A stretch of 60,466 bases of DNA, counting the filler. It is 7 parts of 7 records of this genome, joined end to end, with 100 filler letters (N's around TTAATTAATTAA, not from the genome) between each part and the next. Parts side by side here need not be neighbours in the genome. Positions count along the whole stretch, not along the records: positions 7,624 to 28,997 come from SRR31147125_122820; 6 more parts are not named here. The stretch is one strand, 5' to 3'. The stretch's first letter is position 1. Each line of letters opens with the position of its first letter. Under the pieces are notes generated by a model that saw only the letters and a program-made list of their open reading frames with translations, had not been told where the DNA came from and searched no databases. Both the position numbers and the translations under genes were made by a program. Below are positions 4,492-33,905 of the stretch, one piece after another.

Positions 4492-4497
4492 CCCCCC
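4449..4497 (-). promoter_or_regulatory. Putative programmed -1 ribosomal frameshift signal (slippery heptamer plus stimulatory hairpin)
   Basis: mRNA reads AUG GGG GGG UGA C, giving G_GGG_GGG at 4497-4491. After a 4-nt spacer comes the stem AGGCUACCCCCUCA / 10-nt loop / UGAGGAGGUAGCCU with 13 of 14 pairs (4486-4449). Confidence 0.72.
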
Positions 4498-4850: not shown

Positions 4851-4852
4851 GA

Positions 4853-5299: not shown

Positions 5300-5328
5300 A
5301 ATAATTTACCTCCTTAAATACCATAAAA

Positions 5329-7523: not shown

Positions 7524-7623
7524 NNNNNNNNNNNNNNNNNNNNNNNNNNNNNNNNNNNNNNNNNNNNTTAATTAATTAANNNNNNNNNNNNNNNNNNNNN
7601 NNNNNNNNNNNNNNNNNNNNNNN
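7524..7623. other. Artificial contig spacer
   Basis: N44-TTAATTAATTAA-N44, with stops in all six frames. Confidence 0.99.
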
Positions 7624-10600
7624 ACTCCCACATTAGTGGGAGCGACCACATACGAATGGATTGGAAACGCCGATTGTTCTGGGGAGTGGACTCTGACAGA
7701 TCCTTCTGTCTGGGAACCCAGCACAGGGGTTCCGGGTGCTGGGGACACAGTTGTCCTGCCACATCCTGGTTTGTCAGGATGTGATATCACAATTCCCGAC
7801 TCGGTTCGCCTCCCTGCAATCGAACAGGTCTCCCTTCAAGCGGGGGCAACACTCAATATCCTATCCGGTCTCACGGCCACAACCTTCATCCACGACGGCG
7901 GACACGTCAATGGAGGGGGAACCCTCCAGATCGCCACCTCGGGTACCTACCACTGGAAGCAGGGCGATGTGCGTGGAGTGGGTGGAACAACGGTAGTGTT
8001 GGGTGAAATTGTGGTGGATTCGACGGGGCCGGATCTTGTTTGGGTGGAGCGGCAACTGGCTCTCGTCAAGACAGGGATCGGGAATAATGCCATGAATTGG
8101 TTACAAGGAACCGTTCTTCTGGGACAAGATGCTCTGTGGGACCTGCAAGCCACGGTCAATCTCAATCCGAACAGTGGAGGTTCCCTTTTCAAACCACCTC
8201 CTCTACCCTTCAATGCAACGGGTGTCCTGTCTTTCTCGAGTGGATCCACAACTCATCTTGGCAAGAACAATGTTCCAGAAACATCAATTGAGATTCAGAC
8301 AGAGAACAAGGGAACCCTCATCATTGAAGGTCCTTCCGTCTTTCAAGGAAGCGTAGGTGTCCTCACGAACAAGAGAACACTTCAAATTCTGGAGGATAGA
8401 ACATTGCGCTTTGCAAGTCAATCCATCCTCGACAAAGGAAGTGAGACAAGTGGTAATGGTGCCATTCTCGTCGAAGGCCATCTTACAATTGCAGAACGTG
8501 CTTCGTTTGACGTGGTGGGGGCCACGACAATAACGGGGAACGGGTACATGCAGATTGAGAGTGGTGCCACGGTCGCCTTGGGCGAAACGACCATCGTAGA
8601 GGGTGCTGCAACGCTGGAAGATCCACTCGAGTTCGATATTCAGAACCTGATTGTGAAAGATGAAGCGGTTGTCATGCTGAGTGGTGTCGGGAATGTTCGA
8701 GAAAACTGTACCCTTGCGAACAATGCTACTCTGACTGTTGAGACTCAACTCACCGTGCTGGGTACGCTCAATTTGGAAGGAGGAACGCTGGACGGAGATG
8801 GACAGGTTCAAGTGGACGGAGTTACTCGCTGGACGGGATCGTCCGTGTACGGATCAGGAATTCTACTTCTGTCCGAGGGATCTGTCTCAACTATCAGCGG
8901 ATACACACCCAAGTACTTAGCAAGTCGTAGTGTTCAGGTTGCCGGAGCACTCTCCTGGAGGGAAGGTGACATTTATGTCAGTGAAGCAGCCTTGTTCGAT
9001 ATCAAAGACACAAGCATTGTAGAACTGAGTCCGGGAGGGCGCTATGTAGAAACGGACACAGACCCCAAGGCCAAGCTCAACAATCTTGGAAACATTGTGA
9101 AGACGGGTCCCGAGGTATTAGAGATGTTTGTGGAGGTTAACAGTGCCGGCACGATTGATGTCCTGGAGGGAGTGTTTAACTTCTCACGAGGTGGCAGTAT
9201 TTCGGGGGATCTGACATTTGCAGAAGGTACATTTGACTGAGGGACGGGGGGGGGAAAAGAGTTTGCATGCATTCGTTTGATATTGACATGAATTGTCTGT
9301 CAGGTACTGAGATCCTGTTCACCGGAGGAACCATGGAGCTGAAGCCTGTTGCCAAATTCGTGGGAGCAGGTCGTGTAGAGATGGGGGGCGCTTGGGTGAA
9401 GGCCGAATGCCTCTACAATGTGTCGGCGGAAACGGGCGAACTTGTGGTGTCGGGAAGGAAGGCAGATTTCTTATCGACCATTGGGAACAAGATGATGTCA
9501 ATCGGGCGTTCGATTACTGTGACGGGCGGTACCTTAACGCTGGAGAACTTCCCACTGGGCGTCAAGAGTCTCTTTCTCACAGGTGGAGAACTGAAGAGCG
9601 GTGGTACACTGAGTATTGGATCGAAGGTAAACGTAACGGGGGGTACTCATTCAATCACAAACAAGCTCATTGTTGCGGGTACGTAAAGAGGACCACCGAG
9701 AAAGTGAAAGTACATGCGCTGACACTTCCTTTTCGCGCTCGCTCTAGGTGATCTCCACGTCTATGATGGTGTTCTCGGTGGTTCAGGAACTCTCAATGTC
9801 ACGGGGCGGGCATATCTCCACGGTGGAGAGCTAGGAGTCCACTTTGTGAATGCACTGGGAGGACTGAGTATCGTAGATGCCCATCCCAAGAGCATCACCT
9901 ACGGTCGAGTGGTCCTGTTCAAGTCCAGTGTGTGGGAGGACGGAGATCTCACAACACAATACGGTACAACCATTGTGATCCCGGCCAACCTGACCTTTGA
10001 ATACTTGTACGGTGGGAATTTGTATCAACTACCGTCCCCTACCACCACCACGATCCGAAATGAGGGGTGCGTTGTTGTACATTCTGTTGTAGAAAACTGA
10101 ATTGTGCATGTATCCATCCAGAACATTCATTATTCGATCGGTCAATGCATCACATCCCATTGCACTCCAAGCCTTCATTGAGAACAATGGCGGACAAGTG
10201 GATGTCTTTGCACATGCAACATTGGAGAAGGGTGGTTCCTTCAGTGGTGGAGCTTTGACAATTTTCGAAGCGGCCTATGTCACCTTTGCTGGGTCGGAAG
10301 AGGTTGAATTTGCTATGGACTCCAGTTCCGAATTGCGTTCCGAGGGTGGAATGCAGTTTGCTGGCGGTGCGGTAGATATTCAGGGTGTCTTCGAAAACAC
10401 GAACAGTCTTGATATCCAAGGCGGCACCTTGCGCTTCAAGCCGGGTGCATCGTTATCTCGAATTGGTTCCTCGGTATCCATCACCGGAAACGGCGTGTGT
10501 GTGGCAAGCGGTGCTGAAGCAGAAGACGCCATCTACGGTATTCTGGATTTCACATCCAACACCATGGTGGCATCCGACGTTGTTGTGGGCACGTGCGGTC

Positions 10601-13600
10601 AACTTCTTAGCGATGGTGGAGAGGCCGATGTGTCGGATGCAGTTATGCTAGAGTCGGGGTCTCAGGTGAATTGGAATGCACAGTTTGGGGGAACAGCGAA
10701 CATGACCATTCGCGGGGGCACCCACTTCATCAAGAACGTAGAAACTACAGGATCCAGCTTTGCTATGTCCGACGGACGTCTCACTGGAGAAACGGCAACG
10801 ATTGTCTCCCCGTTCCTGTGGGAGGGCGGTCAACTCGAGGGTGCATTCACTGTTGTTGCAAAAGCTGGCGCTCAAATCGATGGTTTTCTGCCCAAGAATG
10901 TCAGTACCGTTCAGCTGGAACTGGAAGGGACATCGCGTTGGACGGGGCAAGGTTCCATTATGGCAACGTTTGCGGCCACGATTGTCCTAAAGGAGGGTGC
11001 GGTGCTCGAGATTGACAGCATGTCGGATGTATCGTTCGAAGATCGTCTGGGCAATCCATCCACACTGGAAAATCGCGGGACGATTCTCAAGAAGAATGTA
11101 AACACAGCTCGCATCGACGTGATTCTCGAAAATAAGGGTGAGGTAGAGGTTCAAGGTGGTACATTGATCTTGGGGGGCGGATCTTTCGACAGCACTGGGA
11201 ACTGGGAGGTATCCGAGGAAGAGGCGCGCCTCGTGTTCACTGTTGCGGGATCAACTGCCGATTACACTATCAACGGAGGCACCATGACATCAGCGGGTAT
11301 TCTTGCATTCACGGGCGGTGAAGTAACGTTTGGGGGCACGCTGAACGTTGCACCAAGTGGCGGGATTACAGTGGGAGGAACGGGGAAGATCAACTTCCTG
11401 GAATCAGCAACCATCCTCTCAATGGGCCACATTACAGTGGAGGGCGGCACCATGACCATTCGGCTGGCTCCTAGTCAAAAACTCAATATCACTGTGACCG
11501 GAGGATTGCTAGATCTGCAATGTCTCGATTTGCATCTCGAACAGGTCAGTATGTCCTGTGGTGAGATTCGCAGCCTTGGTTTTCTGGTGGTGGATGAGCT
11601 CGTTTGGAGTGGCGGCAAGTTTGCCGGACAGGGACAACTGAGCGTCATTGGCCTCGCCACCATTGAAGAGGGAACGTGTGCTACAGATACGGAGATCGAT
11701 CAGATGCATCTTGTCCTCGCGTCAACAGTATTGTACCGTGGTGGTATTCTGAAGGGCTATCGAGCTGCTATCGTGGAGCTGGGTCCGAATGGTATTCTGA
11801 CCTTGGATCAATACAGCACGCTCACCCCGGCAATCGATCACGTAATGTACCTCAAGAACTACGGTACCATAGTTGTCACCGAAAACACCATGGATGTCCA
11901 ATGCATCCTGGAGAACTATGGAAATATCACCATTCACGACGCTGGAACACTCTTCGTTCGCAGCGATGTCGTCAACATCGGGAATGTCCTTGTCAATGGT
12001 ACTTTCCACGTGGAATCCGATGGTTTCGTCGCTCTCAAAGGAGGATCCGGTGTTATGGGTGCGGGAACTATCGCAATTTCATCGGGAACAGTCAATGTCG
12101 CCAGTACGCTCAGCATTACTGGTACAGTGGTTGTGAGTGGTGGACAAGTAGACTTTGCAAGCGAAGCATCCCTGACCAACATTGGAAATCCACTCCGCAT
12201 CACGGGCGGAACCTTGAATTTCAATTGTTTGGATGTGAAGGCGGGATCCATTCTGCTCGAGACGGGAGGAACTGTTGACGCCCTCGGCGACTTTGTTCTC
12301 CCTTCCCTGACGCTTGCAGGGGGAACACTCGAAGGGGCGGCTGGTGTACTTGTCACCCACGACTTTGTGTTCCAATCTGGTTTCATGGCTGGCACAGGAC
12401 ATACGAACCTGGCTGCCACATGCTCAGGCGAGATCTCGCAGGCGTGTACCCTTACAGCACGAACTCTTGTCAATGAGGGAACCTTTAACATCATGGCTAC
12501 GGTCAACTTGCAAGAAGGAGCTACCCTGCTGAATCGTGGTACAATGTCCCTGATTCCGCCTGCTGGGCTGAGTGAGGGGCAGCCGGGAGTGGCTTCCATG
12601 TTTATCAACGAAGGAGTGATGGACGTGAATCGGGGAACAGAGTCCGGCATGCCCCAGATCACATCTTCTGTCCTCATCACCAATGATGGTTTGATTCACA
12701 TTGAAGAATGTGAATTCATTCTCACGGAAAGCAGTGACAGCTCAGGCCAGTTTGATGTGACTGAAGGAGCACTGCTCACTCTGTCCGCGGGGCGTCACAC
12801 ACTGGATGACAATGCCATGATGTTCGGAGGAGGTGGTGTGACAATCTCGGGGGCCGTAACATTCCTTTCCTTCGGTACTTTCGCACCTGGTCACGTTGTG
12901 TTCACCGATGCATCGGATACAAACATCTTGGGGGTATTTAACGTCTCGGGAACGACAACACTGGACGGTGCAGATTGCTCCGTCACGTTCGACTTCAACT
13001 CTGTGCGTCATTCACTCGGATCTGAGGTCCGAATCATCTCTGGTACAGCGGTCTTTGGATTCCAGCATACGAGTGAAGCTCTGGCTCCGATTGCGCTGTT
13101 AGGAAGCTCCGCCACTCTCATATTGGGAAATCTCGAGATCGTTGTCGAAGACTTGGTTCTCGAAGCCGGAATAGTCACAGGAGAAGGAGTTCTGACCATT
13201 TTACGCTCTCTGACGTGGACAAGTGGAAGTTTCAGGAGTACAGGCACAACAAAGATTGCTGCCGATGCAGTCATGACCATTGGTGGAACCGCAGCAACCA
13301 AATCCATGGCCAAACACACGATTATCAATGAGGGCACCATCCTCTACACGGGTGGAGATATCCTTGTCAGTGAGGGGGCTCTTGTGGTGAATCATGCGGA
13401 TATGGTGCTCACGGGTACGGGTACCTACGGGATCCGTTTCAGTCCCTACACAGGTGCCCTGCCGACATTGGACAATCGCGGCCACATTACTGGCAACTTG
13501 GTTCTCACGACTGATAAAGTAGATGTGGAGGCTTTCTTGCTCAACTCTGGCTCTGTAGACATCGTCAGTGGTCAGATTCAGTTCCAGGGTGGCTCTGAGA

Positions 13601-16600
13601 CAATTGGTCTTTTCAATGTATCTTCTGGTGCTAAGGTTGCCTTCACACATGGGGATCACTTCTTCCGGAGTACCTCACGTGTTACGGGACAAGGAGAGGC
13701 AGAGTTTAACAGTATCACAGAATCCAGTGAGCTTTTTGGGACTGTGGACGTTAGTACGTGTGCTCTGGGTGGCTACACAAGTATTTTCGGAGAGTACGAT
13801 GTTCCTGGAATAACAAAAATCGTGCAAGCAGTGGGAGGAGCCCAGGACGGCATTGTTGTATTTGGGTATTCATCTCATGTGCTTGGATTCGGGGCAGAGC
13901 TTCGTGTGGAGGGCTCAACCGTGAAAGTTCTTCAAGCCGACATCCCGGAGGGCAAGTTTTCGCCTATCTTCGTTACTGCAGGAACGCTTGACTTTGGTTC
14001 ACGAGACGTATCCATTGCAGGTATTTCAATGAGCGGCGGAAGCATACGTGTGGAGGGAACCCTCACGGCAAATGGGAACTCCGTACTGAATGGAGGAGTG
14101 ATCGACGGAAAGGGCACCATGATCTTTGCGGGCGGACTAAGTATCACAGGAGACACAGAGATCCGATATACTCGGGTGGTAAATACCCATACCGTTGTGT
14201 GGACGGAGGGATCCCTGTCGATCGGGTACGGTGGTCGTTTTAGTAACAACGCTGGGGGAATCGTTAGCATTCATGCGGACAGTGAACCTCTCAACTTTGC
14301 ATACGATCCCTTGAAGGGAGAGATCGGTATTGTGGAGAACAATGGTACCATTGAGAAGTATGGGGCCGCCCATCCGTCCACTTTCACTGATGTGCTCCAG
14401 AATCATGGAGTGTTCCATATCGTAGAGGGCTCTGTGCATCTGGATATGGGTCAGGAAAGTGATGGAAGCTTTGTCGTGGAGGAGGGATCCCTTCTGCAGT
14501 TCAGCTCCGGTGATCACTTTTTGCGCGAGGAGGCCACCATTGATGGGGCTGGACTGCTATCGTTCGGGCCCTCCGCAGTTGTGAAAGCCTTTGCAACGCT
14601 GGACTTTGGTACAATTGAAACGGTTGGTGCCGCCGCCGAGGTGACTTTCTACTCTCCGGTGCGCGTTGCTACGGCCCTCCTGCAAGGTGGCACGATCACG
14701 GTGATGAACGAATACGAGGCAACCAATGCCACTGTAGTGAGCGGTGCGAGCCTGATTGTGGATACCGCTTCCACTCCGATCTCGTTCGGGCGAGCAAACG
14801 GTCTGACTGTATCGGCGGGGATCGTCACATTCCGTACTCTCCCTCTCGGTGCTCTCGGCCAGCTCTCTGTTGTGGGTACGGGTCATGTTGTTGTGGATGG
14901 TATCACGGGATCCGTGGGAGATGTCACTCTGGATTCACCGGATGCCATTATTACAAGTACCAGTGCACTGAATGCCACGGGTTACATTGTTCTGAACACC
15001 GGTCTGTGGGATGGTTCCGGTGAAACGACTGTTTCGAATGTATTGAGGTTCCGTGGTCCCGTCTACGTGAAGAGTCACACGTTCATCAATGCCGGCAGTG
15101 TGGAGTGGAATGGAAACAGCGACATGTTCTGGGGAGATAGTGCACACCTTATTAACATGCGGGATCACGTTTTCACAATTCATCACACAGGAACGGCATC
15201 TGAAACGTATTCCCTGATCCTGGACAGTGACACATCCCTAAACGTGGCCTTCGTGGAGAATGATGGACTCATTCAGAAGATGGGACTCAATACGGTGCAG
15301 TTGTTCTCGTATGTTCTGAACAAGCACGAGGTTCAGGTGACGGAAGGAAAGTTGGCCTTTGCCGGTGCGGGAGAGAATCTGGAAGTCATCGACTCCGGTG
15401 TCTTTGGTCGAGTTGCCTTTGAGGGAACAGATTTTCTGTTCTCGCCTGGCTCCCTTATGATGGGAGAACAAGATCTCGTGCTGGGGGTCGAGACCGAAGT
15501 CCATTCGGATATCATCCGACAGTCTGTGACGGTCACGAATGGTAAGACGCTCCATTTCTATGGACCCGTTGTTGTCGAAACTCTTACTGTGGAGGATGGA
15601 GCCATTGCGATTTTCCACGGCATGGTCAATATATCCAACCACCTCACCGTGAGCGGGGCAACAACCGAGGTGTGGTTCTACGATGATTCACAACTTGTTC
15701 GTCTGGGCGAGACTCTCACCCTGACGGAGGGACTGCTTTACATTCGGAGTCCAATCGAACTGGTCCCACAGATTCTGTTGTCTGGAGGACAGATGGATTG
15801 TGGAGCAATTCCTCTGCGTGTCCACCGCTTCACACTCTCGGGTGGCGTTTTCACCTCAGACGCCACCACGACCGTTGTGGAAGGATTCACATGGGAGCAG
15901 GGTACACTCACCGGATTGGGCCGTGTGGTGCTGGGTCCTGCTTCACAAAATATCATTAACGGCACGTCGGGTGAGCGAAGGATCTCATACAGCACACTTG
16001 TTCTCCAAGAGGCCGGCACCATGACGTGGATGGTTGGCGATGTAATGGCATCCCGTGGGGCCTCCTTTATCATCGAGAAGGAATCCAACTTCACCTTGTC
16101 TCCTGCCAGCACAACCTGCCTTTCGTTGTTGTTCGAGTTTTCGGATGTACGAACTCATCGTACACAAACGGCACAATTCCTTGTATCCGGAGTCCTCACG
16201 AAGGAAGGATCCGGTCACGCCACAATGGATGCATTTGTGAGGAACGAGGGAGAAATCATCGTTGCCAACGGATTGCTGGAATTGGTTGACGCGAGTCACC
16301 ACACCGGCTCTATTCGTCTCACAACACCCGATGCAACGTTCTCAGTGGTACGCGGAGAACATGTCTTTGAAAGTACCAGCACCATTGAGGGTCCAGGGAC
16401 TTTGGAAGTGTACGATGGGGCGAATGCTCATTTCTACGCTACAGTCACAGTCGATCATGTTATCGTATCCCATGCCGCACTGGCTCAAGTACATCGTGCG
16501 TTCCTTCCCGGTCTTGATGTGCTCGTTCACCATGGTGGACATCTGTTGGTGGCGAATGACACAGAGGCACGGATTGATGGATTCGGATTGTACGGCTTGG

Positions 16601-19600
16601 AAGTCCAGAGCGGCTGGGTTGGATTATATCAACCCGTTGCTGGAACCTTGACATCGGTGCGCCTTACAGGAGGCACACTGGACATGGGCGTCCAGAATCA
16701 TACAGTGGATTCACTCATTCTTGGGGGCGATGATGGCTCGCGCACAGCCACATCTCTCATTGTGAATGGCACTCTATCCATCCAGAGTGTCATGGAGATT
16801 CGTGGAGGTGCTCTTCAAGGAAGTGGCCAGACAGTGCTCTCCCCCACCACAACACTGACGATCGCCCTGGATCATGATGCGTGGATGTTCGGACGCCACA
16901 CCATTCTGAACAATGGAGGCAATATTACATGGATGGGAACATCAAACGTGTTCTTCATGTCGGATGGCGTACGGCTGATTAATCAGGTAGGGGGCAGGAT
17001 CACCATGGACCATTCCAGTGGCAATATTGAGATTCGCCATGCTGATATGATCCCGGAAGTTCCGTCTATCGAGAACTGGGGTACTCTGGAGGTGATAGGA
17101 ACGGCAGACAATCAGGCACATCTCGATGCAGTGGTTGTGCAGCGTCCGCATCTCGAGGCCCGCATCTGTGTGCTGGAGGAAGGTGTGTTGTCGTTTGGAA
17201 AAGACACAGATCTTGCCAGTGCTTTGGATGTTGGATTAAATGCTCAAGTGCAATTCACGAGCGGGGACCATACGTTGCGCCAAACAGCAAGTGTGGGCCT
17301 TTCGGGTCTTTTGCGTGTCCGCGATGATGCGCACGTTACGGTCCAGTGTGAGGTTGTTTCCGCGACGGGGATGCTGCACGTACACGGCCCGGATGCTTCC
17401 GTTGCGTTCCATTCGACAACAGCACTTGCAAGACTGGATGTTGAAGGCGGACAGGTGTCTGCATTCCATGAGATCAGTTTATCGTGTGCCACACCTCAGC
17501 CGTGCACGGTGACTGGGGGCGGATATCTGCTGTTTGGGCGTTACTCAACTCTGCAATTGCCAGCACCTAGTTTGGATATCACTGGAGGGCGTGTTGAGAT
17601 ATTAACACCCACCAGTGTGCGGATTGACGAGCTATCGCTTCATGAAGGCTCTGTGGATCTCGGTTCTGGAGAGAGTACACTGAACAAACTCACACTAGAG
17701 GGATGTAACGTCGATACAAGCACCCTGACCGTGGGCGGGCTGTTGGAAATAGAATCCGAGTGGCACTGGACAGGAGGACTGCTCCTGGGCCCAGGACACA
17801 CAACGATCAGCCAGGGAACCCTTGTTATGATAGACGGTGCGTGTGACAAGTGGATGGGGGGACACCATGTGCTGGACAATAGCGGCAATATCGTCTGGTC
17901 CCAGGGACACATGCAATGGTTTGACGGAGCGAATCTTATCAATCGTGGTGGTGTAAATCCCGGCTTTTTCCAGGCTGTTAACGCAAAGTCTGTGATTGAA
18001 GGACACATACGAAACAGCGACACCCGCCAATCTATTATGAGGGCAGAACGTGGCGGCGACACGTGGGAGGAGGTGCTGGAGATTAATCACTACAAGGGCA
18101 CTGTCTCCCGTGGAGCACTTCGTCATCAGGTGTGGTGGTCCTACGGCGATCCGGAATGCGAACTTCCGACCGGTGTACCTTTTGCGGACCCCGATTTCTC
18201 CGGCTCACTGAGTGGACCCCTGAACACGGCTATCAATGGAGGAAATAGAGATCAATTCTCAACCCACACTTCAAAGTTTATGGAAAAACTTACCGGATAT
18301 GTGAATACGAGTGTCTCGGGTGTGTACACCTTCACCTTGAGTACCAATGAGGGTCATCGTATGTGGTTGGATGGGCGTAACGTGGCAGACAACTGGTCCT
18401 CCAACTGTGACGTGTGTTCGTGTGGTTCGTGCTCGGGATGCGACTGCGCTTCGTGTGAACGGACGTCTTCCTTCAGCACATACCTCGAAGCAGGTGTTCA
18501 CTACTACGTAGATATTGATCACTACAATTGTGACGGTACCTGGCACTGCTGTGGAACCGAGTGCTCCGACACACAGAACAATCTGGCCCTTACATGGGCA
18601 TGTAGCGACTGTGGCATCTCGACGGAAGTTATTCCCGCTTCTGCGATCTCCTATGGTACAGGATATCCTCTCGTTGATTCCGAAGCGCCGTTTATTCAGA
18701 ACGATGGATGGTTCATCCGTCCCAGTGGGGGTCATACCACAGTGAACGTGTTCCTGCTGAACAACGGCCTTGTGTGGACCACAGACATCACGGACGACTT
18801 GGCATGGGACAACTTCGAGTTCCGATTCACTGGCGGTGGGAGTGGATCGGGTATTTGGTGTTCCGACAACGATCAAGTCCTCAGCTTTGCCGACGGGACG
18901 TACGTGTTTGAGGATGCGTCCAACCTCTTCCTCCCCAGACTAGAGAATGGATTCTTCCCGTGCCGACAAGCAAGTCTCACCGGGAATGCAACGGCTGCTG
19001 TGGTGCGGCACGGTCATGTACAAATCTTGGGAACGGTTGACGTGGAGAGCATGGAGTTCGGTGGTGGGGTTACGGAAATTAGTGGTACATACAATGTTGG
19101 GAGCAATACGAATGTGGGGCATCCTGTCGGGGATTGTAGGGCCGGTGGTCATGTGCATTTCTTGCGCGAAGCAACGATTCAGAATTTCGGCAACGATTTC
19201 TTTGAAATTTCTGCAGGATATGTCCTCATTGATGCGCTAAGGATTAGTGATGTGATCCCACGTGTTGATGTGTTGGGAGGTGTCCTCGAACTGAACCGAG
19301 AAGATGTTACTCTTCCACAGATTCGGGTGAGTGAGTCCCAAACCGGTGACTGCCCCGTCGAATCGGGAACCCTGCGTGCCCACGGTACACTGCATGTGAC
19401 TGAACTCTTCTGGCTGGAAGGTGGCCGTGTTACAGGGCACGGAACGACAATCATCACATCCTCGGCGACATGTACCATTGATCGGGGATTGAACAAGTAT
19501 GTAACGGAGCACACATTCCGCAACTTTGGATATTTGGAATGGCGAGAAGGACAGATGTACTGGGGCGATGGAGCAACTTTGGTGAACGAAGTGGACGGAG

Positions 19601-22600
19601 TCGTCGAGATTATGACAACAGGAGTCACCTACCTTCACCATGCTCCTCAAATGACAGCAGTACCCGTCTGGATCAATCGTGGAACCATTCGCAAACTGGC
19701 AGGCGGTGAAGATGTGCATATGAGTGCATTCATCCAGAACGATGGTTATGTCCACGTTGTGGGACGATGGCAACTGAGTCGAGGTGGAGAGAACACACGT
19801 GTGATGCAGTGTGATGGTGACTACTTCAATGAGATTGATCTGGCGGGAGGAGAGTGGATTCTTCGAGAGGGTTCCGTTGTCACGGGCACAGGCAAACTTC
19901 GTTTCAGTACAATGGTCAACGCCCATGTTTTTGGACGGATCGAGACAGAAATATTGGAGTTCACGGGTGGATACACACACATTCGTGGAGAAGTGGCCAT
20001 TCGTAACTGGACCCATGTGGCGTCTTTGGACAATTATGCAGGACATGTGTGGTTCGAACCCGATTCACATGTCCTGAGCTTTGGTGATCGTCTCATTGTG
20101 GAAGCGGGGGAATGCTACCTGAGTGAAGGGGTGGAGGAAAATGTTGTTGATTTTGTACAGATTGCAGGTGGACTGTTGGACTTTGGGTTCGCAAACTACA
20201 CCTTTAATCGCTTTGAGCTTGATGGCGAGCGTATTGACAAGTCGACGTACCTGGCCGAGGGTGTTGTTACGATCCAGGACTTCTATGTCATTGGGGGACA
20301 CATCATGGGGAACGGAACCACGATTGTCCAGAATCAGCTTCTCATGAACGCAGACGGAGATGCCTGGATGGACTATCACACGATTGATATGCATGGAGAG
20401 TTCTTGTGGCGTCAGGGCGATCTGGAGTGGGCCAATGGCGCTACATTGATTATTCGAGAGAGTGGAGTTCTTCGGTTGGAGGACAATCTCTACAAGTCTG
20501 TGAAGTTCCTTGACCACTACAAGCTGGGGACCGAGGTTCCTATGCTTATCAACTACGGAACCATCGCAAAGGAGGGCGAACACGATGCCCAGCTGAGTAT
20601 ATTCCTGAAGAACATGGCCGGGGGTACGATCCATGTCGTGGAGAATTTCATTCAGTTCCAAAAGGGAGGCGTGATTCGTGACGGTGCGATTCTTCTCGAA
20701 GAGGATAGTTTCATGGATTGTTCCGGAGGCGAGCTCTATATTGGTCCCGATGTGACTATTTCTGGTGATGGGATCCTTCGATTCAGCTATGAGGTCCTTG
20801 CAAATGTGTACGGAACCATTATGTGTAATCGTGTGGAATTCTTGGGTGGCATTACACACATTCACGGCCGATACAACGTCCCGGGCTGGACTGTCGTCAT
20901 GGATATGCAACTGGATCGTCCTGAGCTTGGAAATTCTGGAATTCAACTCTACAAGGGCCAAGTCTTCTTCCACAACGACTCGTTTGTAGAGTCATTTGGT
21001 CAGAACTTCACCGTACAAGAAGGCCACGCCTTTGTATATCGTGCCGAACCAGGAGCATTCCATAATCTCTTTGTTATTGATGGTTTCTTTGATATGGGAA
21101 TCACCAATGTCACGATCCCGTACATTCGGCTCGACGCACAAACCGATGGTCCCGACTCCAGTATCTTGAAATCCTCGGCAACCATTACCGTGTCAGAACT
21201 CTTTGAGCACATGGGTGGCACGCTGACGGGCAATGGGACCACGGTGATTGAGAAGCGAATGAATATCTACAATCCCGAGTGCGATGATCTCACGGGAGAC
21301 GCATGCCGGAGCAAGTGGGTGCGCTACCACACCATTCGTAACCGTGGTGCGATCCACTGGACAAAGGGTCACATGCAGTGGGACAACGGCGCCACACTGA
21401 TTAACGAAGAGGGGAGCGTGTTCTACCTCGAGGCTGAAGCCAATTGGTATCTCTATCACTACAACATGCTGAACACATCGGCACCCGTCCTCGTCAACTA
21501 CGGGGACATTATCAAGCGAGGACTGAATCCCGACGCCTGGCAACAAATCACTGTGTATCTGGAGAACCACGGACGTGTTCTTGTCGAGTCGGGTTATTTG
21601 CAACTTCACTTTGGCGGAGTGGGGCATCCCGGATCCGAGTTCCGGACTCTCGGAAACTGTGTCGCGGGAGGTGGAACATGTCTAGACTTCTCGGGTGGGG
21701 ACTGGATCCTGCAGGAAGGTGCCCTTATCACTGGGGATGGAACGCGTTTCAACGGGGCTACGTCGTTCGTTTACTGTCCCATTGAGGCCAACTATGCACG
21801 ATTCACAGACGGAACGACATACTTGTACGGAGCTGTTCGTGTCTCGAATGCGCACTTTTCACCCTTCCCAACCGTTTACATCCTCGGATCCTACGAGGTC
21901 TACAATCAGACAATCGTGCAAGGCGGCGACGTATGGGTGACGGGCACGGCCCAACTCAATCACACGGGAGACTTCTTGCTTCTTGACGGCACACTGCATC
22001 TTCGCGCACCATCTCAGGACGGCTTCCCTCAAGTGTGGACCGTTGGCGGTATGGGGTCACTTGTTGATCCCGTCCTCGACGTCGGAGCGACTCGTGTGGC
22101 TGTACGTGAGCTACTTGTCTACAAGGGAACGGTATTGGTGGACGGGGAGCTCACGGTTACGGGATTCTACGATTTTGTCGGTGGGAAGCTGACGGGTGCG
22201 GGACGGACCATTGTGCAAGGGACCGGCATGTTATGGCACGAGATCAATCCCAAACTGGTAGATGGCCATGTTGTGGAAGTGGATACGCTGTTGCAATGGC
22301 AACGGGGCGACTTGAACATGAGTAATGGTGCCGTGTTGCAGATCAACAAGAATGCCGTCTTTGAAATCAACACGGTCAATCCGGACGTAGTGCTCCTGCA
22401 CCGTGACGGAGAGGCGGGAATTAACTTTGCGGGACAAGTTCCTGTTCTGCTCAATTATGGTACAATTCTGAAGAGGCAATACGGAAGCATATACTCCATG
22501 ACATATCTCCAAACCCACTTGGAGAACTGGGGAACTGTTCATGTAGAGAGTGGATTGATCAGCTTCGAGAACGGTGCTGACTGTCAGGATGGCGACTTTC

Positions 22601-25600
22601 TGATTGAGTTCGGGGCTGCATTGCAGTTTGGAAAGTTCTTGGACATCACCAGCTATATTCCCGGACTGGAGCCCGGGTCTCCCCTTGCTCTGGGGGGTAG
22701 CCACATAATACGAAACGGAACCCTCATCCACGGTGAGGGTATTCTGTTTTTCACAGGGGCCAGTACAACCTACATGTACGGAACTGTTGCTCTGAGCAGC
22801 AACTACTCCAAGATTGAAGTGAACAATGCACTTGTTTACTTCACTGAGGCGATGAACCTCGTCAGCTGGGGTAACCAACTCTCCGTAAGTGGGACGGGCA
22901 AAGTTATTTGGGACGTGCCCAATGCCGTGTTTCCCTACCTTCTCGTGACGGATCGGGCCACGCTGGACGGAAATGCTGATATGGAGATCACACGTCAGTT
23001 CACCTGGTTTGGAGGAACGCTTGAGGGTCAGGGTTCCCTCGTTGTCAGTGGTCAACTTGTGCTTCCTCTGTGTCCGTGCCCGGAGCTTTGTCCGGGGGAA
23101 ACAGACAAGATATGCCCGGAGGACTGCCCGGAGATCGAAGGGTGCCCTGTACCTCCAAGCACGTGTCCCACACCAACAAGCAGTTATGTGTTGGATACGT
23201 TCCGCTGTACGGAGAGCCATGATCGGCATCTGCGACGCAGGCTGGTGCACACCTACCAGGGCATCAGTGATTACAGTTCGTTTATTGGTGGCGGGGCGAT
23301 CGAGTGTGACGAGAATGGGATGCTGGATAATCGCGGTGTCCTGGTTCTTATTGATCCTATTGGATTCACTGTAGACGGTTCCAGCCCCACAAGTCGACTC
23401 CTGAACGCTCCGGAACAACAAGGTCTTCTGCGCAACGCACCGGAAGGGACCTTTGGTGTGTTTCTGCAGGAGGAAGGTGCCGAGGCCGAGGTGGAGTGGC
23501 GCATTGAGAATGAGGGAGAATTCAACCTCTACTTCGGCACTCTGCATCCCGACCCTGGTGGGTTCCATCAGACGAACGGCACCCTCTATGTCGTGGGTGG
23601 AACCATTCGCCTTCACACACAAGAGGACTTCCACAGTTCTTCGTTCATCAATATTGGGGGCGGCACGATGGAAGGGTTCGGCCAAGTGAAAGCCAGTGTC
23701 CGGGTGTTTGGGGGCGGCGTCTTCAGCCCGGGCAATCCACCCACCGAGTCCATCCATTGCAGTTATGTCGATCCGGTCACTCTTGAGGATACCGCCGGGA
23801 AAATAGCCTGCCTCAACGACTATCTTCTGCCCTACATGATGCAGATTGAGGGACATCTTCTCGTGGAGGAAGATGGATATGTATTTGTGGAAGTCAAGGG
23901 CTACACTCCCGTGACCCAATACGATGTCGTATACGTCAAATACTATGCATGGCTCTTCGGAACGCTCCGTGTGAATTCAACTCTTCAGGTCGATATAGAC
24001 AGTCTAGCACCCGACTACAACAGTCTTGTGTCTGATCTGCAATTAGTCCATCCCGCACGGTATCGGTACCAGTGGTTACATGCGGGGAGTTACAGTATGG
24101 ATTGGAAACGATTCGTTGGTGGTGTACAATCGAACTTCTTGTACGAAGAGAGCATGAAGGTTCCGTTTACCGAATTCAACATGGTCAATCAACGAGTTCG
24201 TGCTTTCGATGCATGGACGCCCTGGGAAGGTGCCAAACTGATGGATATTGGTAGATATCCACCGGAGGGATATCTGCTGAAGGATTTCTTCGGAGCAACC
24301 GACATGATGGTGCTCACATACGACACGTGCCTCAGTTACAACCCAGAACCCATACCTCATAACTGGCACGGGGAGAATGCACCCATCTATCCCTTCTTTG
24401 CTCAGTGTTCGGGATTTGGTTACTGCGAACCACCCCTCTACAGTGTAGTCGACTATCCCTATCGGATTGGCACGTGCAACTGTGTCTCAGGCCATTCTGG
24501 TGCTGGTTGCAACGCAAATTGTCCCACCAATGACACGGATACATGGACTCTTCCGTGTTCCGGTGCCGGTGCATGTGCTCGCCCCAGTGTGGACCAACAA
24601 GATTTCGCCGAGTGCCATGCGATGGAAACGATGGTCGATGAGGACTTCTTCACTGCATTCGGTGATGTGAGCACAAAGTTTGCCTATATGCAACCCCTCT
24701 CGGACTCTGATCTCTCCATTCTACGACCAATGCCATGGGTGCGTCTGGAGTTTGAGCGCGACGGAGATCGAGTGAAGAATCGGGGTGCCCCGGAGGTCTA
24801 TGCGCGATTATTCGGCCTGGATGAGGAGAATGACATTGGAAAGATCAAATCCGACAATGCTCAGTATTCTAGTGCTGGAGGACGATGTGGACGGTCAGCA
24901 CTCTTCCTGGGAGACGTGGGCTACTTCGACCTGGACTACAAAACAGTTCCACCCCAGAATGCAACTGCTTGTTGCTCCTTAAGCAGTGGGGACCCTATGT
25001 TCATAACACTGGACCAGGAATCTGCTATAACCGGTTGGTACACGTATGAGGAGTGCACTGAGGTGGAAGGATGCTATCCCATTCCCGAAGAATACTACGA
25101 CCTTCTTTGTGTACCCAATGGCTACGGTCGGTGTCCCGTGCGAGCCGATTTCGGGGCTTGGAAAGACCTAGGCCACGGTAAGGAGTATACATTTGCATTT
25201 TGGTTGCAGTGGCCCTTGGCAAACAAGACGAAGAGGCGGCTGTTTGAAACAACACATGGTTCTGTTTACTTTGAGAATGATCAAATGAACTACGAGCTGA
25301 CTGAGGACCGATGGACGTTCTGTTCGGCGAATTATGGTGATCATTGCAACTCGGACCAAAATATGGAGTATGGGCCCTTGGGGCCGTGCTCTGGTGTGTG
25401 TACCGACTCGTATGTTTCTCATCCGCCGTGTTGTAAGCATAGTCGTCTGTGCGACCACACCGTCGAACCATGCGACTCTTGTACGTGTGGCGAATGTTGC
25501 ACGGCATACACCAGCGCCCGAGATGCGATTCCGTATGATGAACAACCACCTGCCGGGTGTGGAGGTTGTTGTGGAGATACCAGTGCAACGTGTGCGCAGT

Positions 25601-28600
25601 GTCGCCGTGGGATCTATGAAGGGCCTGATCTGTCCGTGCTGAATGATCAACCGGGGTGGCATCACCTCGCCCTTGTGAGTGTGGACGAACCGTGCCCACT
25701 GCCCCCCAAACTGAACTGTGGCCGGACGCTCTTCTATCTGGACGGGCAGCGTATTCACACATCGGAACTGTGTGGTCGACTTTCTGGGGACTGGACAAAA
25801 CTGATGACCGAGCTGGGTACAGCAATTGACGATTTGCAGTTCTATGATATGGCTCTGACGGAGCATCAGGTATACTATCTCGCAAGTTCAGAGAATCCGT
25901 TGGTATCACTCTACGGACCCAGCACCATGGCTGTTGAGGCACTGGGACTTCCCGCTGGAAACGACGACATTGAGATGAAACCCTCTACGTGTCTCTGTGC
26001 TTCCGGATATAGTGGGGATGATTGCAGTGCACACAACTCTCCGGGAGCGGTGCTCCACTGGGTGACCCCGGGTGGCGGCTACTGGGGCGATCCCGTTAAC
26101 TGGGATTTGGGATACGTCCCTCGGGAGCACGATACGGCTATTATCGAATCCCTTTTCCCGAATGCTCGGATCTACATACGCATAAATGCGGCAGTCGTAG
26201 GCAGCATCACTCTAAAACAGGGCTTCTTGGACCTTGCTGGACACACCTTGACGGTATACCGTGATCTTGTATTAGATGGACTCCGAGCAACCCTGACATC
26301 CCAAAGGGACCATTTCTACTACTCACCGAATCTCTCCAGCTCAGTGCATGTCTACGGGGACTTTGTGTGGCGCGATGGCGTTCTCTCAGGACCGGGAGCC
26401 CTCTATGCACACGGTAATGTTCGCATCGAAGGTCCCGAACCCAAGTACCTCGTTGGTCATTCCTTAATTACTACCTCCACAAGCAATGGAACATGGTCCG
26501 CGGGCCAGATTCATCTCGTAGACCAGGCGTCCCTTCGCAACGAGGGGTCCTTTACGATTCAAGTGACAGGAACCTCATTGATTGGCGACGGCAACGATCA
26601 CCAACCGACAACGCTTCACAATACGGGACATCTCACATTCGAGAAACCGTTCGTTCTGGTGAACCACCATGTCTTCACGAATGAGGGTACCCTAACTCTG
26701 GCAGGAGAGGCCACTGATGTCGATTTCTACGGTCCAGCCCAGTTCACGGGCGGTGAGCTGACGGGAGACGGACGAGCACGCATCCATAATACGGCTGAGT
26801 TTGGTACTGAGAGCACAGTCAGCTGCCGTATCTATATATCAGACGGAGAGACACAGACCAGTGGCCAATGGACAGGCGGGTCCCTCGCCGTGAATGGTGG
26901 GGCTGTGTACTTCCACAGGCCGTCATCTTCCGTGTATATTCTATCCCTTGAGCTACAGAGCGGTTTGTTGGATTTGGGCCCTGTGGAGGCCACTGTGGCC
27001 AGTGCCGTCCAGTCGAGTGGAACGTTCCGCAGTAGTGGCCCGATGACCGTCGATGGAACCTACTCTTGGACAGGGGGTGTGATCACAGGTGTCGGAACGA
27101 TCTTTGTTGATGGAGAGTTTCGTGTGAGCGGTGCAGTTGAACCAAAGCTAATGTATGAACGCCATGTAGTGAATCGTCACCTTGTAACATGGCTGGAAAG
27201 CACGTGGAACGTGTTCAACCGAACCCTCCTCCTGAATGCCCCAGGAGCAGAGTTCCGTATGAGTGGTAATGTGAATATGCGTCACAATCCACTCCCAGGA
27301 TCATCTTACGGTACACCGGATGTTGACTTCAAGCTGCCAGGACCGAAGATCCTTAATGCAGGAGAAATGGTAGTGGAAACAGGACAGGCCCTGTTTGCCG
27401 GCTGTCGTGTATACAACTTGGGCGTGTTCCGTGTACGCACGGGGGCACATGCTGAATTCGATCGCGAGGGCCTCGAAGTGTTTGGAGACCAATTCTCGAC
27501 AGTATCACATCTTTTGTCGCAGCACTACGGGTACAATTTTGGGCCTTACGTGGACACAGTACAACACAATGTCACGGTATCGTGCGGGAACGAGACGTGC
27601 ATCGAAACCATTACGGAAGAGATTCTGGTCCCGCCGTCCCACGGCCTTGTGGGAGAGCTGAACATTGAAGGTGGAGCCACCGCCACACTGCGGGAGGGCC
27701 ATCACTTCCTGCGGGAGGGAAGCCGCACCGTTGTTGCGGGGCTGCTCTCGTTCCGTGGAACTGTTGACATCGACGGCACACTGGACCAGGGACCCTCGGG
27801 CGAAGTTGTACTTGAAGATGCGGCCCATGTCGGGTTATTCCATGTCAGTTCTACCACCCGGGATGTGCGTGTTGCGGGTGGTGAACTGCACATTCAGGCA
27901 CCAGACGGCGTTCTCGGTTCCCTACATGTGCTGGGACGCGGTGCCGTGTATATGCCGTGGACGGACCTGGCCGTCGACAACCTTTTGGTTGAGGAGAATG
28001 GTGTTCTGTCTGGAGAAGGACCACTTAGCGTCGGACTTCTTACTTTGAAGGACGCAGGTGATGTCCTTGGTTCTGGTTTGTTACAGGTAAGTGATGTTCT
28101 GCAAACGGGAGGATCCTTTGCGAGGTTGTCTGGAGTGACACTAGCGGGAATGTGGTCGTGGAGTGGTGGTGCCATTGTTGGTGCCGGTGTCCCATTAATC
28201 GTCGCCGAGCCGGGTATCCTCGATATCAACCCTTGCGCCGACAGCAATACTGTATGGCGATGTTCCCCTCTCACAGGTCCACTTCTCTTACAGGAGGGCT
28301 TTAACTCGAGCAGTGTTGCCGATCTCTCCGCCCCGTGTCCGGATGACGAATTTCATGTTGGCCAGTTCACGGCCAACTCGTATCAAGACGTAGTACCAAC
28401 TGTGGATCTCAGTACGACGGACTATACGATCACCGCTTGGTTCCATATTTCCTCCAACTCCCATGCGGATCGAACTCTTGTGTCGGCTTTACCTGCTGAT
28501 GACATTGTGACGATTCGCTGGCATCCCCGAAGTTATCCAGATGATGGTATTTACATTGCAGATGTCGGAACAGCTATTGGCGGTGCCTTCCAGGGCACAG

Positions 28601-28997
28601 GAGTCGACATCAATGGCCTTGCCGAGGGTTGGCACTTTTTGGTTGCCATTGGACGGAAAACGGACTTCCGCTCCACTTCTGTGTTGCGGACAGTGCTCTA
28701 TCTTGATGGAACTCCACTTGGAGAAACGGAACAGAAGGCAACCGCCTTGTCTCGAATCGGTAATTCCATTGATGGTTCTCGTCCGTGGGGTCTGGTGGAT
28801 GAACTCCACATTTACGGGCGTGTGCTTACATACCAAGAAATTCTCTTGTTGGCTTCCCAACGTAGCGGACTGCATGCTCGTACCCTTTTGAACCATGGAA
28901 CTGTACAATGGCGAGGTGACTCGGTGAATTTGTGGGGCCGACCTACACTTCACGTCAGTGAGAATGCCACCCTCAATCTCGAGGCGAGCGAGGGATC
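7624..28997 (+). CDS. Giant (>7,000 aa) spliced eukaryotic secreted/surface beta-solenoid repeat protein with PA14, LamG and EGF modules; partial at both ends. Exons 7624-9226, 9304-9678, 9748-10066, 10122-28997
   Basis: Three GT..AG introns join four track ORFs in frame (21,173 coding nt). It contains about 20 W.GG.l.G.G..N.G.i.W..N.G...K repeats, a PA14 domain (~18076-18655), LamG-like domains (~25186-25870, ~28390-28860) and EGF-like Cys motifs (~24406-24575, ~25990-26025). Confidence 0.88.
9227..9303 (+). other. Spliceosomal intron (77 nt)
   Basis: GAAG|GTACAT...TGTCAG|GT; contains an in-frame stop, and removal gives FAEG-TEILFTGG in frame. Confidence 0.9.
9679..9747 (+). other. Spliceosomal intron (69 nt)
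   Basis: GCGG|GTACGT...pyrimidine-rich..CTCTAG|GT; removes a TAA and gives VAG-DLHVYDG. Confidence 0.9.
10067..10121 (+). other. Spliceosomal intron (55 nt)
   Basis: GAGGG|GTGCGT...ATCCAG|A; restores the repeat motif IRNEG-TFIIR and switches into the 6315-aa frame. Confidence 0.9.
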
Positions 28998-29097
28998 NNN
29001 NNNNNNNNNNNNNNNNNNNNNNNNNNNNNNNNNNNNNNNNNTTAATTAATTAANNNNNNNNNNNNNNNNNNNNNNNNNNNNNNNNNNNNNNNNNNNN
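28998..29097. other. Artificial contig spacer
   Basis: N44-TTAATTAATTAA-N44. Confidence 0.99.
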
Positions 29098-29381
29098 AAT
29101 ATACACCAAACACCCTGACAACCAGCGAATCTTTTCAGGCTGCCTTGAGAAAAACCCGTCAGACAGGTTATGCCTTCGACAACGAAGAGTGTGAACTGGG
29201 AGTAAAATGTATAGCCTTTCCAGTCCGCAATTTTACCGGTAAAGTTGTTGCCTCCATCAGTGTTTCCGCCCCTGTATCACGTATGGGAGCAGAACGGGAA
29301 ACTCAGATTATTGATGTAATGTCCCGCATTACTGACGAAGCTTCCCAAGAGCTGGGTTATGTCCCGCCGACAGCTACCTAA
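29098..29381 (+). CDS. IclR-family regulator, C-terminal fragment
   Basis: GYAFDNEECELGVKCIAFPV..ASISVSAP is the IclR effector-domain signature. Confidence 0.9.
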
Positions 29382-29451
29382 TACCCTGTCAAAATCAACC
29401 ATTTGACTTATCTTGCTCCTCGATACGATATTCTTATAAGAGGAGTAACTT

Positions 29452-29826
29452 ATGTCTAAAGTAGTGCATTTTGACCTGGCCGCAGTTGATCCTGAGCGTG
29501 CCATCGCTTTTTACTCAACAGTATTTGGATGGAAATTCGACAAATGGGATGGTCCCATGGATTACTGGCTGATAACCGCAGGACCGGAAGAAGAACATGG
29601 TATCGGCGGAGGTTTGTTCAGGATAAGAAAAAACCCTGAAGAACTATCAAGTAATTTAACAATTGGCGTCGATGATGTGGATGCCAAAGTTAACGATGTC
29701 GTTTTCCAGGGCGGATCCATCTATCGTGAAAAATCGGCCATTCCGGGTATCGGATGGCTTGTCTATATCTATGATACCGAAGGTAATATTCTCGGACTCA
29801 TGCAGAACGATCCTAAAGCGCGTTAA
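29452..29826 (+). CDS. VOC/glyoxalase-family protein
   Basis: VVHFDL..FYSTVFGW..GIGGG..DTEGNILGL; RBS GAGGAG upstream. Confidence 0.92.
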   Translation: MSKVVHFDLAAVDPERAIAFYSTVFGWKFDKWDGPMDYWLITAGPEEEHGIGGGLFRIRKNPEELSSNLTIGVDDVDAKVNDVVFQGGSIYREKSAIPGIGWLVYIYDTEGNILGLMQNDPKAR

Positions 29827-29902
29827 TTCAAGCTGCTAACAGCCGCTGTCATGAATATCTAACTTAACTCTTTTCGTTCCAGACTTTTTAGCATATTTTT
29901 GA

Positions 29903-30868: not shown

Positions 30869-31032
30869 GGTGAACTCCAATGTGGATTGCAGCCTGTAAT
30901 ATTTTTGGGCGTACTACTGGCTATTTTTGTTTCTATTATTGAAATTCAATTGTAATATGTGAACTGTTGTCGTGTCAATCTTGGTTTCTACCCCCTGGTT
31001 TCGCCCCAAGAATCTATGAGTTCGTGAAACCA

Positions 31033-31407: not shown

Positions 31408-31442
31408 CTTTCTATACTTCTACCTCTATCCGGATCGACATG

Positions 31443-32081: not shown

Positions 32082-32083
32082 TT

Positions 32084-33903: not shown

Positions 33904-33905
33904 TG

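Follow-up and report, generated by a model that had tools for sequence, protein, structure and literature searches.

The 60,466-nt window (the whole stretch of DNA analysed here) consists of seven contigs, and the second of these carries a giant gene whose product is a tandem array of predicted beta-helical repeats. This contig is 21.4 kb long, with a guanine-cytosine (GC) content of 0.51-0.55 throughout. The contigs are separated by six spacers of the form N44-TTAATTAATTAA-N44, of which 0 copies are expected by chance, and the TTAATTAATTAA block is a stop in all six frames. Because the contigs are joined by spacers, adjacency within the window is uninformative on linkage. The giant gene comprises four exons and three short introns (a slash marks each exon-intron boundary):

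7624-9226 (+): exon 1, an in-frame open reading frame (ORF) from the contig start, 5' end cut by the contig end
9227-9303 (+): intron 1, 77 nt, aag/GTACAT...GTCAG/gt, TTGAC at -21
9304-9678 (+): exon 2
9679-9747 (+): intron 2, 69 nt, cgg/GTACGT...CTCTAG/gt, CTGAC at -29
9748-10066 (+): exon 3
10067-10121 (+): intron 3, 55 nt, ggg/GTGCGT...ATCCAG/aa
10122-28997 (+): exon 4, 18.9 kb uninterrupted, 3' end cut by the contig end

Stop-to-stop ORFs on the + strand span 6,318 codons at 10093-29049 and 554 codons at 7576-9240, and two shorter ORFs in other frames lie between them. The joined exons total 21,173 nt, or 7,057 codons with 0 stops. The initial annotation had proposed one spliced frame of about 7,057 codons, open at both ends; the count is exact, and the frame is open only because the contig ends there. 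Intron 1 has stops in all three frames. Introns 1 and 3 shift the frame, and the frame upstream of intron 3 stops at 10098-10100. The length of intron 2 is a multiple of three, yet an in-frame stop lies inside it. The GC contents of introns 1, 2 and 3 are 0.455, 0.507 and 0.40, compared with 0.505-0.523 in the adjoining exons. A CTRAY-type branch site precedes the acceptor by 21-29 nt in two of the three introns. Within the first 2.5 kb, a strict search pattern for introns (GGTRC .. YTRAY .. YAG, 50-90 nt) has two matches, each exactly at a frame break; the remaining 18.9 kb also contains two.

Chance alone readily supplies a GT-AG bridge from one ORF to another, and the case for introns rests on motif restoration. 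Each intron is an insertion relative to homologous sequence, and splicing restores exact motif spacing. The spacing was judged against the repeat consensus, the repeat profile and the nearest outside homologue, the metagenomic protein P0007; the profile used at the junctions was built from about 20 repeats that included the two repeats concerned. All three junctions lie inside conserved motifs, namely ..eGa.l.F..G.. (intron 1), LTV...F.W.GG..G.G (intron 2) and P.l.N.G.I.K (intron 3). The alignment with P0007 has 0 gaps at junctions 2 and 3, and a second alignment places a one-residue gap just upstream of junction 1.

A second gene in the window has introns of the same style. Contig 5 (GC about 0.52-0.53) carries a kexin/furin-like proprotein convertase gene at 42183-44264 (+), with Peptidase_S8 and P_proprotein in different frames. 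PDB searches with its two ORFs both hit kexin and furin (E 4.5e-26 and 8e-26). Removal of five obligatory GT-AG intervals (55, 63, 60, 51 and 50 nt) leaves one 600-codon ORF, which is stop-terminated; the catalytic motifs to be expected and an RRVKR pro-site are both present in it. One more candidate interval, a sixth, is 54 nt long, in-frame and optional. The intron 5' ends (GTGTGT, GTAATG, GTTCGT, GTGCGT and GTGCGT) resemble those of the giant gene. GC at third codon positions (GC3) is 0.537 in the kexin-like gene and 0.545 in the giant gene, while bacterial-looking genes of the other contigs range from 0.26 to 0.68. The two genes probably come from the same eukaryote. Because the junctions restore motif spacing and the kexin-like gene shares intron style and GC3, a eukaryotic origin of the giant gene, which had also been the initial reading, is held with high confidence. 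The window contains DNA of a eukaryote with 50-77-nt introns and a GC3 of about 0.54, alongside contigs of bacterial or phage-like character.

The two genes differ in intron density. Five or six introns fall within 1.8 kb of the kexin-like gene (about one every 300 nt), whereas the first 2.4 kb of the giant gene contains three introns and the next 18.9 kb 0 that break the frame. At the density of the kexin-like gene, several dozen introns would be expected in the giant gene. The intron-poor 18.9 kb fits either a foreign, intron-free origin with later gains at the 5' end or intron loss on the 3' side.

The product is a repeat protein throughout most of its length. Off-diagonal matches in a phmmer self-comparison of the 7,057-aa protein number 767 and recur roughly every 300 aa (best E 2e-33). 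A blastp self-comparison at E 1e-5 returned the self-match alone, and phmmer and profiles were needed. An iterated profile gave 22 matches, corresponding to 18 full-length units and two pairs of half-matches around inserted domains, and thus to 20 repeats, the number that had been estimated from the letters. The repeat unit is about 280 aa long (about 240-325 aa). The protein has the following features:

7651-7764 (+): cap 1 (W..G..W..W....VP...D), aa 10-47, opens module A
7771-23736 (+): module A, repeats 1-17, aa 50-5304, profile E 1e-36 to 4e-91
17968-18624 (+): PA14 domain with a Cys-rich insert in repeat 12, PA14 core at 18217-18540
19141-21894 (+): the three most alike neighbouring repeats, aa 3773-4690, 28-31% mutual identity
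23659-23982 (+): end segment GG..G.G..FSPGN...YD...LFGTL, aa 5279-5386, single copy, after repeat 17
23983-26049 (+): Cys-rich linker of about 690 aa, with EGF-like signatures at 24475-24522 and 25990-26031 and a LamG-like stretch at 25726-25872
26059-26133 (+): cap 2 (W....GG.W....NW..G.VP...D), aa 6079-6103, opens module B
26161-28995 (+): module B, repeats 18-20, aa 6113-7057, last repeat cut by the contig end
28375-28842 (+): Laminin_G_3 domain (ConA-like lectin) in the second loop of repeat 20, with repeat motifs on both sides

The repeats are strongly diverged. In an alignment of 16 repeats, identity to the first repeat is 19-31%, and the only invariant or nearly invariant positions are glycines and one asparagine. 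Contig 2 has no DNA-level tandem repeat except one 21-nt, two-copy match. The array appears to be old, since it lacks DNA-level tandem repeats and its repeats pair one-to-one, in order, with those of P0007. The repeat order shared with P0007 also indicates that the gene is old in its lineage despite its intron-poor body. Five antisense ORFs of up to 581 aa lie opposite the giant gene, including one at 22231-23976 (-). A Pfam scan of these five found no family, and they are probably a by-product of the Gly/Val/Thr-rich codon make-up. No Rfam family was found on contig 2.

The initial annotation had proposed a beta-solenoid scaffold, and structure prediction agrees. An AlphaFold2 model of one repeat, computed for 300 residues with the 16 repeats as alignment, is all-beta with 31 strands (predicted local distance difference test score (pLDDT) 87.3; predicted template modelling score (pTM) 0.86). 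Foldseek gave 0 matches against the PDB at E<=0.001, and its weak rows are mostly beta-helices. With VIA-align, 127 of the 48,161 chains compared reached Z>=8, and the named ones among the best 50 are all beta-helix proteins. These matches include Vag8 (Z 17.6, root-mean-square deviation 3.9 over 273 residues), pertactin (Z 17.1), the toxin VacA (Z 16.3), UpaB (Z 16.2), EtpA (Z 16.1), tailspike depolymerases (Z 16.0 and 15.8), polygalacturonase (Z 15.7), AlgE4 epimerase (Z 14.9) and the A-domains of Candida glabrata Awp1/Awp3b (7o9p, Z 13.8; 7o9q, Z 13.2). The repeat is thus predicted to fold as a right-handed parallel beta-helix. Such a helix rises about 4.8 Å per turn. At about ten turns per repeat, the 20 repeats would give a stiff rod some 100 nm long.

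The likeness to bacterial adhesins lies in the fold. Vag8, pertactin, UpaB, Ag43 and EtpA share the same three-faced beta-helix, with Z scores of 16-17.6 over about 243-275 residues. The passengers of autotransporters and two-partner secretion (TPS) proteins are also long adhesion rods on surfaces, as proposed here for the giant protein. However, they have no significant sequence relation to it, the giant protein has no barrel, PATR or TPS hits in Pfam, and its host is eukaryotic. Pfam gave no Autotransporter hit in the 7,057 aa, the protein's C-terminus lying beyond the contig, and no Chlam_PMP hit in the whole protein at E<=0.01. It gave no hit of any kind, a TPS domain included, in aa 1-534, the extreme N-terminus also lying beyond the contig. 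A PDB sequence search gave six weak rows, headed by a 'possible adhesin' (E 6.7e-4, 22 bits), which is not a significant link. Among eukaryotes, the Awp1/Awp3b and Hyr/Iff proteins are surface adhesins with a beta-helix, and an Atlas lead pointed to Hyphal_reg_CWP (0.91). In these proteins there is one short A-domain, not a 20-fold superrepeat, and the giant protein has no Pfam hit to Hyphal_reg_CWP.

Each of the two modules is opened by a cap, close to positions 7650 and 26060 as initially noted. Among 152 family members, 81 match a loose regular expression for the cap within their first 150 aa. By BLAST, cap 1 aligns to residues 29-60 of P0080 and 20-54 of P0111, and cap 2 is 48% identical to residues 42-74 of P0070. 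By these sequence matches, the cap appears to be the N-terminal element of the repeat family. Since cap 1 sits 10 residues from the contig start, little beyond a signal peptide may be missing at the 5' end. Further upstream modules may also exist, cap 2 being internal.

Two inserted domains interrupt the array. The PA14 domain (PF07691) in repeat 12 scores 48.4 bits in Pfam against a cut-off of 24 (E 1.1e-12). Alignment with the other repeats shows that repeat 12 is complete around its insert of about 230 aa, and that the loop carrying the insert is short, variable and of low confidence elsewhere in the array. The Laminin_G_3 domain (PF13385) in repeat 20 scores 45.5 bits against a cut-off of 27.6 (E 1.1e-11). 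Repeat 17 has a Cys/Pro-rich insert in the same loop as this Laminin_G_3 domain.

Module A is followed by the end segment and the linker. The end segment, present once as the initial annotation had it, had been likened to the end of autotransporter passenger domains. This likeness finds no backing, with 0 Pfam hits at E<=10 and no beta-barrel on the contig. Its outside matches are four weak phmmer hits (E 3.5e-4 to 0.064), all members of the repeat family, and in bacterial members they sit near the end of the beta-helix part. In the linker, two C-x-C-x5-G-x2-C signatures (aa 5551 and 6056), of the PROSITE EGF type, are in keeping with the proposed EGF motifs. Pfam does not add to them, since its EGF match is below threshold (E 0.11) and EGF_Teneurin reaches 13 bits against a cut-off of 24.3. 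The Laminin_G_3-like stretch of the linker is likewise below the cut-off (15-16 bits, E 0.015); an Atlas lead to LamG stands at 0.90. A word-index search found no homologue of linker aa 5395-6074 among giant or shorter proteins. Over the 7,057 aa, Pfam has no model for the repeat, the caps or the end segment.

The repeat belongs to a very large family. At E<=1e-3 the profile of the 16 repeats matched 10,874 cluster representatives; a threshold of E<=1e-10 leaves 6,998 of them, and one of E<=1e-30 leaves 2,570. Among the matches listed, there are 4-23 matched stretches per protein. The repeat has no Pfam or NCBIfam model, and 0 of 30 members scanned had a family over it. A word-index search using the repeat profile brought up 17 proteins, each unnamed or 'hypothetical' and of little help for taxonomy. 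Among 20 clusters that were looked up, the named ones belong to Magnetococcales, two Verrucomicrobia, Okeania and Eukaryota sp. TZLM1-RC, TZLM3-RCL and GEM-RC1. Three Joint Genome Institute (JGI) entries among the 20 have generic names only ('hypothetical protein', 'DUF11/PKD-like domain'). The named matches are all bacterial except the three strains of Skoliomonas, a metamonad. The family is mainly bacterial, which bears out the description of the repeat as bacterial in type.

The bacterial giants are annotated as 'beta strand repeat-containing', 'tandem-95 repeat' or 'LamG-like jellyroll' proteins. Examples are MBF0368285.1 (Magnetococcales), WP_293138047.1 (Okeania), MGV3771475.1 (Verrucomicrobiales) and HVY69332.1 (Verrucomicrobiae). 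They resemble the giant protein in their repeat of about 250-280 aa (about 390-860 bits), in their N-terminal W..NW..P..D cap and, in some cases, in accessory LamG-type domains. Unlike the giant protein, they have repeats that form clades within each protein, indicating recent growth or homogenisation, and they lack introns and an EGF-like linker. Identity to the giant protein is about 22-26%. Their partner domains are bacterial, including a type IX secretion system (T9SS) sorting domain (2 of 30), dockerin (1 of 30), Big_9/cadherin-like domains (3 of 30), DUF11/PKD and PEP-CTERM.

The Skoliomonas members are KAL0223599.1 (TZLM1-RC), KAL0228205.1 (TZLM3-RCL), and KAL0242624.1 and KAL0249382.1 (both GEM-RC1). 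They have the same repeat and are 4,500-4,900 aa long (KAL0249382.1, 1,950 aa). Their identity to the giant protein is about 22% over 1,971 aa, and they fall on the eukaryote-type side of the repeat tree. Three Skoliomonas proteins (P0011, P0050 and P0132) have no Pfam domain and so, unlike the giant protein, no PA14 or LamG. TZLM1-RC is a Skoliomonas (PMC11603281). The genome paper gives assemblies of 16-21 contigs with an N50 of 2-3.7 Mb, from which bacterial contigs were removed, and a GC content of 36-37%, compared with 52% in the giant-gene contig (PMC11316075). The repeat proteins are encoded on 2.5-3.9-Mb contigs. Because the assemblies are long-contig and bacterial contigs were removed, these proteins are taken to be the protist's own. 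The genome paper leaves these proteins undiscussed, with 0 occurrences of adhesin, beta-helix or surface protein (PMC11316075). Among the papers listed by full-text literature searches, none concerned eukaryotic members of such a family; in these searches, 'PA14' mostly retrieved the Pseudomonas strain.

The nearest protein is the metagenomic P0007/P0153 (3,558 aa), with 27.9% identity over 2,569 columns by BLAST and 32% by global alignment. It resembles the giant protein in the order of its repeats and has a PA14 domain at the matching place. Unlike in the giant protein, the tail after its PA14 domain does not resemble the family. Homology ends shortly after PA14, and the last ~45 residues form a hydrophobic, AT-rich-looking tail. 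If this tail arose by reading through into an intron, as it may have, the nearest relative would be eukaryotic as well. An alignment-based search for related loci found no relative in metagenome, genome or viral contigs.

A FastTree phylogeny covered 139 repeats from 19 proteins, with local support only and long branches flagged. In this tree, 8 of the 10 P0007 repeats have a one-to-one partner in the giant protein, and the order is shared for seven of these pairs. In Skoliomonas, repeats at equivalent positions in the three strains pair with one another, and two module-B repeats pair with repeats of P0003, a protein with EGF and weak G8 hits. Each multi-repeat bacterial protein forms its own clade, except three related T9SS/Big_9 proteins that share one. 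Among the other top hits with a BLAST match, 136 of 136 are nearer to the bacterial-type than to the eukaryote-type set. Because of the one-to-one pairing and the shared order, most of the array would predate the split from P0007. This qualifies the initial proposal that the gene had been acquired and 'then expanded'. The repeats at aa 3773-4677 are the part that agrees with it, since they form their own clade of three within the giant protein (support 95) and look like a local triplication.

A quick IQ-TREE analysis used 64 hand-picked repeats of the 139. From the giant protein and P0007 all repeats were taken, from P0003, P0011 and P0050 every second or third, from each bacterial protein no more than the first and the last, and from P0171 and P0132 none. 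The tree was unrooted, and the groups were named once the first tree had been seen. Within this subset, a tree constrained to keep the 21 bacterial-type repeats on one side of a branch had a likelihood exceeding that of the free tree by 41 units (approximately unbiased test, p-AU 0.92). The sequences are compatible with one split between bacterial-type and eukaryote-type repeats. The eukaryote-type branch would comprise the giant protein, two metagenomic proteins and the proteins of the three Skoliomonas strains, with old repeats whose order has been kept. Lateral transfer, raised as a possibility at the outset, is plausible.

Taken as a whole, these results are best explained by a protist beta-helix adhesin or coat protein, to which a probability of about 0.6 is assigned. 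Contig 2 would carry a single nuclear gene of a microbial eukaryote, assembled at low depth from a mixed sample. Its product would be secreted or bound to the surface and longer than 7,057 residues. The diverged repeats would stack into two capped right-handed parallel beta-helices, with 17 repeats in module A and at least three in module B, joined by the Cys-rich EGF-/LamG-like linker acting as a hinge. The lectin-type domains (PA14 and one or two LamG) would project sideways from surface loops of this stiff stalk. The protein may serve glycan-dependent adhesion to a substrate, prey or other cells, or it may form a fibrous cell coat. The lectin-type inserts fit the role of adhesin or coat protein suggested at the outset. 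A comparable arrangement is found in the yeast Flo/Epa proteins and the Marinomonas RTX ice-binding adhesin, which carry a PA14 lectin on a very long repetitive stalk. Their stalks are Ser/Thr-rich or immunoglobulin-like, and their PA14 domain is terminal or in-line. In the giant protein, by contrast, the stalk is a beta-helix and PA14 sits in a loop of one repeat.

Several observations weigh against this explanation. The repeat family is predominantly bacterial, and four of the window's other contigs appear bacterial or phage-like, with tail sheath, histidine kinase, periplasmic binding protein, FdhE, ABC transporter and H+-PPase families. No RNA run was found by run search to contain the giant-gene sequence, so the splicing is predicted from the DNA. 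The single DNA run found with this sequence gave 42 pieces, all at least 99% alike, at a depth of 2-4 and with no joints. No contig of that run covers 9622-10287, which leaves introns 2 and 3 without a second assembly; its pieces neither confirm nor question these two introns. No signal peptide, membrane anchor or wall anchor was seen in a gene whose ends lie beyond the contig. Adhesins outscore beta-helix enzymes only narrowly in VIA-align, so function is not given by fold alone. In an AlphaFold2 model of repeat 12 with its insert, the helix halves are confident and the insert falls below pLDDT 50; the side-on display of PA14 consequently rests on the alignment.

The bacterial character of the family and of four of the seven contigs, the 136 of 136 top hits nearer the bacterial-type set, and the low depth with no RNA run would suit a giant surface-protein gene of a bacterium, in which assembly or sequencing damage or pseudogene decay mimics introns. 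This is very unlikely. The interruptions are insertions of 55-77 nt, not single-base errors, they start with G/GTRC and end with YAG, and removing each restores the exact spacing of the motifs. Moreover, the kexin-like gene has five obligatory introns of the same kind and the same GC3, and the repeats are old and conserved by position as in Skoliomonas, whereas those of bacterial arrays are alike within a protein. Large DNA viruses of protists are another conceivable host, since some have spliceosomal introns and fibre proteins, and short introns with a very large fibre-like protein would be compatible with such a virus. However, no relative was found in the viral contig collection, contig 2 has no viral hallmark, and GC3 and intron style match the cellular-type kexin gene. 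A viral origin is the least probable of the alternatives and is close to negligible.

Two further alternatives accept a eukaryotic gene and differ in function. The protein could be an array of polysaccharide-degrading or -modifying enzymes with lyase, hydrolase or epimerase sites, whose PA14 and LamG domains bind the substrate. PA14 and LamG occur also in glycosidases, and beta-helix enzymes score nearly as high as adhesins (Z 14.9-16.0). Against this, glycines and one asparagine alone are constant, no acidic or basic catalytic residue is conserved across the 16 aligned repeats, the 7,057 aa have no Pfam match to a family of glycoside hydrolases or lyases, and twenty tandem copies are better suited to a structural rod. 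An enzymatic role is therefore considered improbable. Somewhat less improbable, and still unlikely, is a purely non-adhesive coat or extracellular-matrix fibre (glycocalyx, scale or theca), in which the lectin domains cross-link the organism's own glycans. The anatomy would be identical to that of an adhesin, and EGF-like and LamG modules are typical of matrix proteins. No sequence feature separates coat from adhesion, and this alternative is best regarded as a variant of the protist adhesin or coat protein.

Giant beta-helical adhesins are a hallmark of bacterial surfaces, and here the same repeat is found in a eukaryotic protein of more than 7,000 residues. The protist protein would combine this bacterial repeat with eukaryote-style additions, namely introns, an EGF-like linker and lectin domains grafted into the loops of the helix. 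The conservation of repeat order among eukaryote-type members at about 30% identity suggests selection on rod length and on the positions of the inserts, which offers a handle on how protists build long extracellular fibres. The family, with more than 10,000 clusters, has no curated model, and the 16-repeat alignment could seed one. The intron-free 18.9-kb exon, set against the intron-rich kexin-like gene, is a testable mark of foreign origin or of an unusual history. A more specific scenario remains tentative and rather doubtful: an old eukaryote-specific branch, acquired once, would have been kept as an ordered giant rod in distant protists that are anaerobic or poorly known, as a fibre displaying lectins, with the 18.9-kb exon as its bacterial footprint. 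If true, skoliomonad metamonads and at least two metagenomic lineages would possess a class of extracellular fibre, serving prey capture or attachment, that has so far gone unrecognised in protists. No major concept would change, and protists would have taken up one more bacterial surface module.

The contigs of the window and the spacers between them are as follows:

1-7523: contig 1, GC 0.40-0.42
7524-7623: spacer
7624-28997: contig 2, giant gene
28998-29097: spacer
29098-34118: contig 3
34119-34218: spacer
34219-42006: contig 4
42007-42106: spacer
42107-47785: contig 5, kexin-like gene
47786-47885: spacer
47886-54547: contig 6
54548-54647: spacer
54648-60466: contig 7

Contig 5 also carries a Glycos_transf_2 fragment (E 3.5e-12) at 46036-46458 (+), in a short ORF among many broken + strand ORFs. 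A further eukaryotic gene split by introns probably lies here. On contig 7, weak and colinear matches to CTC1, a eukaryote-only telomere protein family, occur at two places, 55410-56441 and 58415-59089 (+). They score 25.5 and 18.1 bits against a cut-off of 27.8 and correspond to profile positions 268-347 and 871-921. With its fragmented + strand ORFs, contig 7 may hold an intron-bearing CTC1-like gene of the same eukaryote.

The other observations concern bacterial or phage-like DNA. A phage-type contractile tail sheath protein is encoded at 5332-7521 (-), with a Phage_sheath_1 match (E 5e-22) and a C-terminal domain; it is unrelated to the giant gene and is cut by the contig end. Its contig has a GC content of 0.40 and a GC3 of 0.26. 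At 35306-39629 (-), an H+-pyrophosphatase (825 bits) adjoins a fusion of an Old Yellow Enzyme and a pyridine-nucleotide-disulphide oxidoreductase, and the two ORFs overlap by about 130 nt. This contig has a GC content of 0.57-0.59 and looks bacterial.

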